Assembly: GCF_004010195.1 (NCBI RefSeq)
Contig: NC_057718.1
Location: forward strand, 5,094,195 to 5,158,194
Reading direction: 5' to 3'
DNA from: Chiloscyllium plagiosum
Lineage: Eukaryota
DNA length: 64,000 bases
Under the pieces are notes generated by a model. The model was not told the DNA's origin. It made no database searches and was given only the letters and a program-made list of their open reading frames with translations. Below, piece after piece: positions 1,931 to 53,600 of this stretch. The position numbers were made by a program, and so were the translations under genes. Position 1 is the stretch's first letter; each line of letters opens with the position of its first letter.

Positions 1931-2098
1931 TCTGGATTAGTGGTGCTGGAAGAGCACAGCAGTTCAGGCAGCATCCAAGGAGCTTCGAAATCGACGTTTC
2001 GGGCTTTTGCTCCTCGGATGCTGCCTGAACTGCTGTGCTCTTCCAGCACCACTAATCCAGAATTTGGTTTCCACATCTGCAGTCATTGTTTTTACCTA
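1931..2098 (+). mobile_element. Penelope-derived hairpin insertion, family A
   Basis: Inverted arms 1931-1983 and 2009-2061 plus tail; 11-bp TSD CATAAACACAC (1920-1930, 2099-2109). Confidence 0.8.
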
Positions 2099-2974
2099 CA
2101 TAAACACACCTCATGCCAATGCCAGTTTAACATGTTCATGAGTCACGTTTGATATAAAGAGGTTAGATTGTCAGTTTGCAAAACTCTGGAGATTCAAGTT
2201 ACTGTTGCAATGTGTGTGGTTGTTTGTGGTGGTTATGGATCATGAGCTTGCACTGTGTCTCCGCATAGTAGCCTGTGCATTCAAGTCTCGCTCCATCGGG
2301 CTGAGCAGGACACTGAGGCTGTCACAGTGCAGTGCTGCAGGAGTGCTGTGTTATTGGAACCGTCTATCTTGTATGAGTTATTAAATTGCCCAGTCTGTGT
2401 GCAAAGCATTGCACATAACCAAAGATGAACCCAGGATTATCCCAGGGATGGGATATGGGACTGTTCATTTAGAAAACCTGGTCAGCAGGGACTCATTGGG
2501 CCGAAGGGTCTGTTTCCGTGCTCTCTGACTCTCCCTCTCTCATTCACTCATTCCCACACTCCATCTCTCATATTCTTCCTTTCTCATCTGCTCAATATTT
2601 CTTTCCCCACTGTCTTTATCTTTTTCCCTCCCCTTCCTCTCCCATTCACTGTCTCTTCCTCGCCCACTCAAACTCTCACCCACTCACACATCCATTCAGT
2701 CATTCATTCACGAGAACAGTGGTTGTGCTGTCTGGAAAATTAAACAATCCGCATGTAGTGCTTTTGAATCTCTTCGAGTGCTTTCAGGTCATTCACAAAA
2801 CAGAACCATCAGCTGAGAGTTAGTTTCCCTGCAAATCAATCAGTACCCTTGCCCATGCCAGGGTAGATAGATCTATGTCTTTTCATATCTTTCTGAAATC
2901 GATGTGGAAAACCAGAATTAAGTGTTTTATTTATTGTCAACGGAGTGGATGACCCGTCTTTTCCTGGACTTCCA

Positions 2975-50600: not shown

Positions 50601-53600
50601 GTGACAAGGAGTTGCAAAGACTCTCAATCCCATGAAAGAAGACATTCCTCCGCATCTCAGATTTAAATTGGCACCCCGTTATTCTGAAACAGTGCCCTCT
50701 TGTCTGAGACTCTATTAGGAACCTCCTCTCAGCCTTTACCCTGTCAAGTCATTTAAGACTCCTATAGGTTTGATGGTGCAGGGTTTACTGTCAGTGACGT
50801 GGTGCCACTTTTGGCATTTTTGCGTGTGTTTGGGTAAACCTGACGTTGATGTATTATGGATGCCACAAACACTTGTTAAACCTCATCACGAAACCTGTTT
50901 CTGCACTGCTGAGAGTGTTTAGATTTAGGTTTTAAATGCGGCTTTGCGCAGGTTGAGAAACAAACTTCCTGCTCACACCTGTTTGAGTAAATTGGATCAC
51001 GATGAAAGGGTGCTCATTGATTGGCCACTAGTTTTTGTCGATTTTGCTAACTGTGAGCAAGGAACAAGAGCTGACCAGGCAGCACTCCAAACCTATGCTA
51101 CCATTCGTGGAGATGTGGTCTGATCTGATTTTCATCTCAACTTTACACTTCTGCAGATCCTCAATAATCTGTCATTCCCTTCAGTGTTACATACCTTACC
51201 AGGTTCCAATAATGGTGTGGTTATCTTTCTGATCTAGTGTCCACTCATGGGTCTAGACTAGTAATTGAGTCACAGACCCTTCAGTCCAACTCGTCCATGC
51301 CGACCGGATATTCTAAATTAATCTAGTCCCATTTATCAACATATCCCTCCAAACCCTTCCTATTCATATACCCACCCAGATGCCTTTTAAATGCTGTAAT
51401 TGTACCAGCCTCCACCACTTCCTCTGGCAGCATGTTCTATGCACACACCAGTGTCTGCGTGAAAAGGTTATGCCTTAGGTCCCTTTTATATCTTTCCCCT
51501 CTTTCCTTAAACCAGTGCTGTCTACGTTTGGATTCCCTCAGCCTTGGGAAGAGACCTTGGTTATTCGCCCTAGCCATGCCCCTCATGGTTTTATAAACTT
51601 CTATAAGGCCACCCCTCAGCCTCTGACGTGCTAGGGAAAACAGCCCCGGCCCATTCAGCCTCTCCCTATACCTCAAATCCTCCAACCGCAGAAACATGCT
51701 TGTAAATTCTTTCTGTAAATCTTTCAAGTTTAACAACATCTTTCCCATAGCAGGGATATGCAGTGAACATGACTTCCATTCCTACTCTGGTTGGATTGAA
51801 TTCAATTCAAAAACATAGTTGGAGACCATGAAGCTCTGGACTGATGTTATCAACAAAACAGGAAGGAAACTTGCCAAGCTGACCCATGTGGGTCCTAAGT
51901 GACTCCAGTCCCTTGCCAATATGGTTGATTCTGCCCCGGAAGTGCCAACTCACGTTATAATGTCTATGATTTAAGAGGGTTCTCCACCACCCCAGGGTAA
52001 CAGGAAACTAGCCTCATCAACAACACCATGTCCTGAGATTTAATCTGATATGTTAGGACAAAAAGTCAGTTGTCTTGAATTGTGTGTGCTTTGTTAAGTG
52101 TTCTGAAATACACTGACTGCCTGGCTGATGAAGGGCTTTTGCCCGAAACGTCGATTTTCCTGCTCCTCGGATGCTGCCTGACCTGCTGTGCTATTCCAAC
52201 ACCACTCTAATCTAGACTCTGATTTCCAGCATCTGCAGTCCTCACTTTTGCCTAGTACAGAACAGGGCAGGTTAGAGCAACAGCACTCCAGCTGCTGTGA
52301 AATGAGAACAGAAATGGTCAGAAATGCTCAGCAGTTCAAGGTCCTTTCATCCAAACTCCAGTGTTCACTGATTATTAAGTCTTTTTCTTTGCATTTCTCT
52401 GATCCTATTATTTTGGGTTCAAGTCCGATACTGGGGCATGATGACCAAGAAAGGTGGGTTCATCAGGTGCCTGGGGAACCCAATTTTCAGCTTATTAATC
52501 CTTTCACTAAAACCTCTGACATGCACCAAGAGCTAGAGAGACACCAGGTCAGCTGTGCTTGATCTACAGTGACGACCAATCAAGTTCTAGCCTCTGGAAA
52601 ACATGAGTGGTAGAAGCTGCTCCAGGAGTAGATCACAGGCAAGAACATACTCAATGTGTCTTTGAATGTGGGAAATCGTCCAAGTGTGAAAACCCTTCTC
52701 TGGGCAGAGTATTGTCATTTTCAGCATAAGACCATAAACATAGGAACAGAGGTAGGCCATTCAACCCACTGACACTACTGTGCCATTCCGTGAGATCACA
52801 GCTCATTTGATAATTGTCTGATCCTTTTTCCTTTTTTATCGTTGGCCAACATTTATTGCCCATCCCTATTGCCCAGAGGGCGGTTAAGAGTTAACCACAT
52901 TTTGGCCAGAGTGTGGGAGTTTCCTTACCTAAAGGGCATTAGCAAACCAGATGGGTTTTTCCAACAATCAATAATGGATTCATGGTCATCATTAGACTCT
53001 TAATGACGTATATTTTCTAGTGAATTCAAATTCCGCTGTGGCAGAGTTTGAACTGGGTCCCCAGAACATTACTTGGCTCTTTGGATTAATAGTCTAGCAA
53101 TTATACCACTAGGCCATCACCTCTGCCTGGCACCATAAATCTCCTGTAACCCCCATAATGATTAGAAATCTGCCTCAGCTTTTAATATACTTAATGACCA
53201 GCCTCAATCTTACCTCTGTGCCAAAGAATTCTACAGATTCACAACCCTCAGAGAAAAAATATCCTCCTCATTTCTGTCAGAAATGTCCTCATTCTAAGGT
53301 TCTGCCCTGTGGTCCCAGACTCTCCCACATTCCCACCGTCTCTCCACACCTACCCTATCAAGATACCAAAGACTTTCAATAAGGTCACTGCTCATTCCTC
53401 TAAACTCCAATGAGTGCAAACCCAATCGATTCAACTCTTCCCCATAAGAAAATATCCCACATAGCTAGTTCATCCCAGTGAATTTTCTCTAGCCCGCCTC
53501 AAATGCCATTATCGAGTCACAGAGCTGTACAGCATGGAAACAGACCCTTCAGTACAACTCATCAATATCAACCAGATATCCAAAATTAATGTAGTCCCAT

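Follow-up and report, generated by a model that had tools for sequence, protein, structure and literature searches.

A stretch of 64,000 nucleotides (nt) from the shark Chiloscyllium plagiosum (assembly GCF_004010195.1, 3.56 Gb; contig NC_057718.1, positions 5,094,195 to 5,158,194; hereafter the window) carries 20 short repeat loci that are very probably the dead, strongly 5′-truncated termini of endonuclease-bearing Penelope-like elements (PLEs) of several lineages, each lineage with its own minimal type-I hammerhead ribozyme. Confidence is high that the repeats are PLE termini with such hammerheads, and the chance that master elements really cleave themselves in vivo is put at about even. 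The copies in the window are relics, and in about two thirds of them the palindrome or a base of the core is gone. The class of motif is a known one; the host and the families are new. The hammerhead would lie in the last 90–135 nt of each lineage's RNA, laid out as a short helix I, the box CUGANGA, a single unpaired base, the hairpin of helix II, the box GAAA, a loopless palindromic helix III and H17 (a residue other than G at position 17). Hammerhead-bearing Penelope termini were also the reading of an earlier note made from the letters of the window (the original prediction), and it stands: family A is joined to an open reading frame (ORF) for a reverse transcriptase (RT) and a GIY-YIG endonuclease in four loci of the genome, and the anatomy of the insertions is as published for PLEs.

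Repeat families and their hammerhead motif

Families were defined by blastn with four references drawn from the window itself, which places the 20 loci (ten of family A, two of C, seven of B and one of D) between 1.9 and 52.3 kb, or one locus per 2.5 kb across 50.3 kb; the original prediction had spoken of about 20 short insertions at about one per 3 kb. The tail of family C cross-matches that of family A in blastn, and no cross-match was found among the groups A/C, B and D, which bears out the earlier claim of at least three families; the layout of the motif is common to all. All PLE sequence in the window consists of terminal pieces no longer than ~250 nt, and runs of N occupy 45506–46251, 54154–54653 and 60708–60820. 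The loci are as follows.

1923..2098, arms 1923–2004 minus and 2008–2098 plus: family A head-to-head pair; minus arm with the 3′ half of the motif only (stem II 3′ strand and GAAACGUC), plus arm tail only
23828..24013, both strands: family A head-to-head pair; stem II and GAAACAUU kept and the CUGANGA box lost in the minus arm, plus arm tail only
25182..25278, minus: family A single copy; canonical, C3 at 25278, GGGC-UUUU-GCCC, ACGU, H17 = U, short 3′ end
28915..29127, both strands: family A head-to-head pair, arms 96% complementary; minus arm canonical (C3 28995), plus arm with broken box CUGUAGA (C3 29007)
31219..31305, plus: family A single copy; boxes and stem II intact (UUAU loop), stem III decayed to ACAU
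43174..43251, plus: family A single copy; canonical (ACGUC), short 3′ end
43748..43870, minus: family A subfamily with compensated stem II GAGC-UUAU-GCUC; broken box CUAAUGA, stem III AUGU, long 3′ end
44979..45169, both strands: family A head-to-head pair; minus arm with broken box AGGAUGA and intact stem II, plus arm tail only; adjoins the N run from 45506
48083..48266, both strands: family A head-to-head pair, arms 94% complementary; boxes intact in both, 48163- canonical, 48186+ with GGGU/GCCU and ACGG
52110..52254, plus: family A single copy; canonical, C3 52125, with 52152/52153 as the predicted cleavage site, long 3′ end
40657..40850, both strands: family C head-to-head pair; plus arm with intact boxes, AGGU-UAC-ACCU and ACAU (C3 40757)
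47060..47200, plus: family C copy headed by a short inverted arm; broken box CUGAGAA, stem II GGGU-CAC-ACCC, stem I AAGUC/GACUU (5 bp)
12273..12413, minus: family B copy; C3 12299, box intact, stem II 3/5 bp, post-motif sequence rearranged
15015..15160, plus: family B copy with inverted arm; C3 15116, GGAGC-AGU-GCUCU, with stem I UCAC/GUGA and a decayed stem III (AGUU)
16925..17034: fragment of family B with tail sequence only, in the long form
21724..21941, both strands: family B head-to-head pair, arms 85% complementary; plus arm with broken box CCGACGA (C3 21822), long tail
22603..22784, both strands: family B head-to-head pair; minus arm with broken box CGGACGA (C3 22685), AGCU kept
34560..34760, plus: family B copy with inverted arm; canonical, C3 34684, GGGGC-AGG-GCUCU, AGCU-U, stem I UCAC/GUGA
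35297..35438, both strands: family B tail-only inverted pair; hairpin with a sub-threshold Rfam mir-999 match (52.2 bits, gathering score 58)
48719..48950, both strands: family D head-to-head pair, arms 94% complementary; boxes intact in both, extra base U, 6-bp stem II GUUACC/GGUGAY, stem III decayed to ACAU or AUGU

The motif is far more frequent than in shuffled sequence. The plain pattern CTGANGA-N5-30-GAAA has 23 matches in the window against 7.45 ± 2.35 in 100 shuffles (maximum 13), and a stricter descriptor (the box, 0–1 extra nt, a stem II of 3 bp or more set immediately between the boxes, then GAA) has 14 against 0.93 ± 1.02 in 200 dinucleotide shuffles (maximum 4). Thirteen of these 14 lie inside the repeats, and the one outside them, at 30065-, is a chance match. 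As the copies are related by descent, the excess reflects a motif carried by the repeat and not 14 independent events. Across the whole genome the pattern CTGANGA-N10-22-GAAACGTC, which takes the intact ACGUC form, has 137,805 matches compared with 430 for a reversed control, and the GAAAGCTT form of family B has 7,247 compared with 109, so that the genome holds at least 137,805 motifs.

Motif statistics were drawn from the 19 arms that extend into the motif region, and these were parsed by descriptor because MAFFT misaligned families B, C and D. The GAAA box is present in all 19, as is the single unpaired base between A9 and position 10.1, directly after CUGANGA (A in 17 arms, U in two). CUGANGA itself is intact in 13 arms and broken in the other six, and the first pair of helix II (10.1–11.1) is G-C in 12 and G-U in four. 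Arms canonical throughout are 43174+, 52125+, 25278-, 28995-, 48163- and 34684+. The palindrome that follows GAA (ACGU in family A, AGCU in family B), with no loop on helix III, is kept in eight arms; in nine others a single transition separates the arm from it, mostly to ACAU or AUGU, the forms expected from CpG decay, and in two a single transversion. The palindromic stem III that had been proposed is therefore intact in the eight and one substitution off in the remaining 11. All ten stem II examples of the original prediction were found at the positions it gave, those on the minus strand having been cited by their low coordinate, and the box it described is present at most of its sites and broken at 47089, which reads CUGAGAA, and at 43870-, which reads CUAAUGA. 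Its claim that stem I pairing is visible in some copies holds for family B (UCAC/GUGA, 4 bp in four of five arms), for the copy at 47089 (5 bp, one of two C arms) and for family D (UCA/UGA, 3 bp); in most copies of family A stem I has only 2 bp. Families with unrelated flanks share the bases of the catalytic core.

Stem II changes in sequence between families on both sides of the helix whilst its pairing is kept. In the outer four pairs, 73 of 76 cells pair, compared with 8–42 of 76 in six slid registers in which the 3′ partner was moved by 1–3 positions; between families, pair 2 is G-C, A-U or U-A, pair 3 is G-C, A-U, G-U or U-G, and pair 4 is C-G, U-A, G-C or A-U. To follow covariation beyond the window, patterns that differ at a single helix II pair of family A were counted across the genome. 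The form GGGC/GCCC was counted 112,231 times and the two forms changed on one side, GAGC/GCCC and GGGC/GCUC, 2,215 and 1,917 times, and the compensated form GAGC/GCUC occurs 1,315 times where ~38 would be expected under independence. Seventy of 100 listed GAGC/GCUC doubles are one variant (U7 with a UUAU loop), a combination that is rare among the uncompensated GGGC/GCCC copies (two of 100 listed), which points to one or a few compensated lineages that were later amplified; the window copy 43870- belongs to this lineage. Judged from the counts, such a compensated lineage is the signature that would be expected from selection on active masters, though the events behind it are few.

The original prediction had placed the motif with the minimal type-I hammerheads of PLEs, and its layout indeed matches the published metazoan PLE motif feature for feature (Cervera and de la Pena 2014, PMC4209133). 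The hallmarks of that motif are covariation, a base between 9 and 10.1, a G10.1–C11.1 pair and a palindromic 15.2–16.2, and the shark repeats share with it the core boxes, the extra base, G10.1–C11.1, the loopless palindrome, the covariation and an RT plus GIY-YIG neighbour. The published motifs occur in bony fishes, coelacanth, Xenopus and reptiles, whereas the host here is a cartilaginous fish, a group not named in the main text of that paper (PMC4209133). Helix II has 4–6 bp here and 7–8 bp in the Schistosoma families, and most family A copies have a helix I of 2 bp compared with the 4–5 bp published, a length of 2 bp being on record for Drosophila virilis (PMC4209133).

Joining of family A to a Penelope-like reading frame

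Genomic relatives were fetched with the copy at 52125 as the query (30 loci, labelled L001–L030), and their left flanks are of three kinds, namely unique sequence, an inverted arm or a common upstream extension. In the four fetched loci where family A is joined to an RT plus GIY-YIG ORF, the ORF ends 200–370 nt upstream of the motif. In locus L031 the upstream extension passes into a GIY-YIG-like coding sequence that runs to ~200 nt before the motif, and loci L038/L046 and L035/L047 show the order RVT_1, GIY-YIG, motif, tail. Locus L059 has a 725-aa open stretch with RVT_1 and GIY-YIG, the motif lying 366 nt past its stop; this copy has a premature stop in the endonuclease region, and its translation contains a C-x4-C-x2-C string just ahead of the GIY-YIG region, a string of possible relevance to the criterion that PMC8557442 gives for the Neptune/Nematis-type clade. 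Endonuclease-bearing PLEs are defined by this order of domains, an RT and then GIY-YIG (PMC4209133, PMC8557442). PF01541 is carried by 23 of the 120 homologues listed, and the closest named proteins among the matches listed are ‘uncharacterized’ proteins of a bamboo shark. In L047 direct repeats with the motif stand 5.5 kb apart, as direct pseudo-long terminal repeats around an ORF might, with a degenerate stretch between them.

The tie of family C to PLEs runs only via the likeness of its tail to that of family A. In the ~950 nt of sequence available beside a B-type motif in L047 no PLE ORF was found, and L048 gave no match for families B or D. Runs of N touch several loci: that at 45506–46251 lies inside the span of the repeats beside the A pair at 44979–45169, L031 also contains N, and in L059 the 5′ part of the PLE ORF is hidden by N.

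Fragments of RVT_1 of the long interspersed nuclear element (LINE) type do lie near some copies (L031 1895–2722; window 24532–25017), as they might if the repeats were 3′ tails of LINEs (CR1/L2 type) or of ordinary short interspersed nuclear elements (SINEs) that resemble a hammerhead by chance. The LINE RT of L031 was considered as the motif's own ORF and rejected, for it is a separate insertion that ends ~400 nt before the PLE fragment. The ORF that is contiguous with the motif has GIY-YIG and not an apurinic/apyrimidinic endonuclease, which contradicts a LINE or SINE origin for family A; moreover, chance likeness fits poorly with 137,805 matches against 430 in the control and with four groups of different stems that keep one layout. 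A LINE or SINE origin is accordingly regarded as highly improbable.

Insertion anatomy

Copies are strongly 5′-truncated, and many have an inverted 5′-truncated arm at their head. Such head-to-head inverted pairs, with the tails outward, make up nine or ten of the 20 loci in the window, their arms being 85–96% complementary in the pairs measured, and the same arrangement is found in L046, where the inverted arm is 1.25 kb long. Head-to-tail tandem units or adjacent units on the same strand were not found in the window, where copies are dispersed or inverted. The 3′ ends of family A fall at two positions about 35 nt apart (among 40 copies, 18 end between +82 and +104 from C3 and the other 22 between +119 and +133), and family B likewise has a short tail and a form ~40 nt longer.

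This anatomy is that of PLE insertions, for which the available portion of PMC8557442 describes high 5′ truncation, an adjacent inverted 5′-truncated copy and an optional tail of 30–40 bp; PMC4209133 adds that PLE minimal hammerheads occur mostly as single truncated copies, with nearby pairs on opposite strands. For the Poseidon element of Anolis carolinensis (PAc), Frangieh et al. (2024, PMC11167929) report that the RT starts at either of two internal sites, which gives the optional tail, and that both strands of the target are cut and extended. PAc resembles the shark repeats in having a hammerhead near the RT start, and its two start sites and extension of both strands fit the two positions of the shark 3′ ends and the paired inverted arms (PMC11167929). 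The two differ in that the PAc ORF starts inside the hammerhead, whereas the motif that can be placed for family A lies 200–370 nt after the ORF; the shark side of this comparison is known from sequence. By analogy with other PLEs, the shark elements would insert by target priming from both DNA strands, starting at either of two internal RNA sites. Two start sites with priming on both strands would give the optional tail and the inverted pairs, and complementary DNAs (cDNAs) primed from two strands would leave arms with their tails outward, the latter step being our own suggestion. The two 3′ ends, the head-to-head arms and the 5′ ends described below would thus form a genome-wide record of the two-strand insertion that has been reconstituted for one lizard element.

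The 5′ ends are not spread evenly. Among 39 copies of family A that reach the motif, 17 lose similarity to longer copies 3–8 nt upstream of C3, usually directly after ‘ATTC’ (window examples are 43174, 25278 and 28995), whilst five end at 0–2 nt, four at 10–13 nt and 13 extend more than 20 nt; the 39 are the best matches to one query and not a random sample. Random truncation does not explain this pile-up. Nor is it accounted for by a polymerase stalled at the folded ribozyme, since a stall would stop on the 3′ side of the fold. Possible causes are an RNA whose 5′ end lies near −5, a short template made up of ‘hammerhead + tail’, and a junction of two cDNAs at the palindrome. On the second of these, most short copies would stem from a non-autonomous RNA of ~100–135 nt (SINE-like, or a solo pseudo-long terminal repeat (LTR)) that starts just upstream of the hammerhead and is moved in trans by the PLE protein. 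The pile-up itself speaks for such an RNA, as does a preprint that, in its available part, derives animal retrozymes from PLE pseudo-LTRs (bioRxiv 10.64898/2026.07.22.740005). Animal non-LTR retrozymes and the SINE-like hammerhead repeats of Schistosoma are, like the shark repeats, short and non-coding with type-I hammerheads; retrozymes form head-to-tail arrays of canonical hammerheads, whereas the copies here are dispersed or head-to-head and their motif is minimal (same part of bioRxiv 10.64898/2026.07.22.740005). Arrays of the retrozyme type are absent from the window, an unbroken series of longer copies leads into the endonuclease and the RT, and an inverted arm adjoins seven of the 17 pile-up copies, so that the boundary may instead reflect the joining of two cDNAs; the bias of the sample towards one query also tells against reading the pile-up as an RNA end. 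A separate short RNA behind most copies is thus judged rather unlikely.

Inverted pairs can also resemble hairpin RNA genes. Those at 35333–35418 and 48771–48859 have sub-threshold matches to mir-999 (52.2 bits against a gathering score of 58) and mir-642 (40 against 90), respectively, as pairs that were microRNA or other hairpin RNA genes might be expected to have. All such Rfam matches fall below the gathering score, however, and the hairpins are no more than the paired arms of a repeat present thousands of times, which makes a hairpin-gene identity scarcely credible beside that of paired PLE termini. As a separate observation, the fold-backs at 35333–35418, 48771–48859, 48091–48258 and 34640–34755, all with sub-threshold matches to Rfam microRNA families, could be a source of small RNAs.

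Self-cleavage, abundance and neighbouring sequence

Several results weigh against hammerhead-bearing PLE termini as the explanation. The Pfam GIY-YIG score on the shark ORFs is 20.1–20.4 bits, slightly below the cut-off of 22.6 (a 48%-identical homologue reaches 25 bits in the aligned region against the same cut-off). A PLE ORF fragment was not found in the window by tblastn, and the link to the ORF is established for family A alone, not for B or D. No Rfam family of any kind reached its gathering score in the window, and no hammerhead was among the Rfam matches at E up to 10 for the whole window plus two short stretches, the only matches being the sub-threshold microRNA-like ones on the fold-backs. 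Of the 19 arms only six are fully canonical, six of the ten family A arms have a helix I of just 2 bp, and the GAGC/GCUC class is largely one amplified lineage and hence few events. Folds of whole elements are not stabler than shuffles (z = −0.06, −0.06 and −0.43), and the minimum-energy fold of family A pairs part of the core box. Published minimal hammerheads cleave poorly in vitro (PMC4209133), and in the PAc study ribozyme mutants left insertion in vitro unaffected and no RNA-sequencing ends were seen at the cut site (PMC11167929).

Rfam holds the hammerhead families type I, type III, HH9, HH10 and type II; the shark motif shares the catalytic-core boxes with them, and it lacks the true helix III and the longer helices on which the curated models rely. 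Helix II forms in the minimum-energy folds of most copies tested, energy models cannot score the core, and the cofold structures are not diagnostic. Small PLE hammerheads with a short palindromic stem III and no tertiary contacts have reportedly been described as active in the form of dimers by Lunse, Weinberg and Breaker in RNA Biol. Along these lines, to go by work on other PLEs, the shark monomer would be unable to form helix III, two copies would pair via the palindrome, and the dimer would cleave after H17, weakly and probably aided by the protein of the element.

It is also possible, if on balance improbable, that the repeats are PLE termini whose hammerhead-shaped segment is no working ribozyme and serves as a structure for protein binding or positioning near the RT start. 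The normal insertion of the anole catalytic mutants and the lack of read ends at the cut site would suit such a role, as would the dependence of PAc cleavage on protein in the same portion of the source (PMC11167929), the success of Naiad PLEs, which thrive without hammerheads according to the available text of PMC8557442, and the 2-bp helix I of family A. A protein site would, however, not need the exact CUGANGA...GAAA together with the palindrome and a non-G at 17, and the complete set of catalytic-core bases is identical in families with unrelated flanks. Fungal and plant PLE hammerheads cleave well (PMC4209133), and a C3G/G8C rescue has been shown for the anole motif (PMC11167929).

The load of motifs in this genome is large. 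By the looser pattern used here it comes to 137,805, whereas the descriptor of PMC4209133 gave ~4,000 for coelacanth and ~9,000 for Xenopus, and an RT query gave 82,460 first-look candidates in the genome, of which 135 were scored. We suggest, very tentatively, that the load of intact motifs (at least 137,805 of the ACGUC form and 7,247 of the AGCUU form) may be the largest counted in a vertebrate, and that the 5′ pile-up may mean either that the main template of retrotransposition is a ‘hammerhead + tail’ RNA of ~100–135 nt with the ribozyme at its 5′ end, a PLE-derived SINE-like parasite, or that the palindromic ribozyme is a preferred joining point of converging cDNAs. PLEs as such have been reported from shark genomes in the literature; no report of a hammerhead-bearing Penelope in a shark was found by full-text searches, and the supplements of PMC4209133 or the data of the dimer paper may list cartilaginous fishes. 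The main value of the finding is for annotation, as gene finders and Rfam miss a very large and easily recognised population of repeats. With more than 10^5 intact motifs and more than 8 × 10^4 first-look RT matches, sharks are well suited to covariation tests of a natural ribozyme at the level of subfamilies.

Reads of polyA single-cell RNA under the same species label cover repeats of families A, C and D on both strands (window 46972–52347, in repeat bins only). All 401 of 401 reads fit only partly and hence come from other copies; the unique flanks in 46972–52347 have a depth of 0, a second run placed no reads there, and read ends showed no reported accumulation, so that the reads are no test of expression or cleavage at the locus. 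No exon-like Pfam match was found among the 39 window ORFs scanned, and a host exon was not identified. Intact copies in sense orientation within transcribed genes could in principle cut the host pre-mRNA.

Other repeats share the window with the PLE termini. A further tail family related to A lies at 17235–17329 and 41889–41951, and in L031 at ~1330–1390, without the hammerhead part at these places; it has the stretch ‘GATGCTGCC.GACCTGCTG’ in common with A and a different end. The RVT_1 fragment at 24532–25017 (+), which scores 33.3 bits, is not matched by the PLE ORF in tblastn and is probably a LINE remnant. An unrelated repeat family of at least 200 nt is found at 3784–4331, 6842–7541, 26124–26503 and 35123–35310, and within this non-hammerhead family lies a 140-nt tandem duplication (26124–26403, 95% identical). 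A dispersed repeat of ~200 nt occurs on both strands (11186–11432, 38831–39061, 41455–41704, 42108–42335 and 34195–34399), as does a longer repeat whose copies, in both orientations, are 81–94% complementary (20468–20818, 25499–25926, 51341–51715 and 53515–53909); 51228–51451, in this longer repeat, is the bin with the most RNA coverage.

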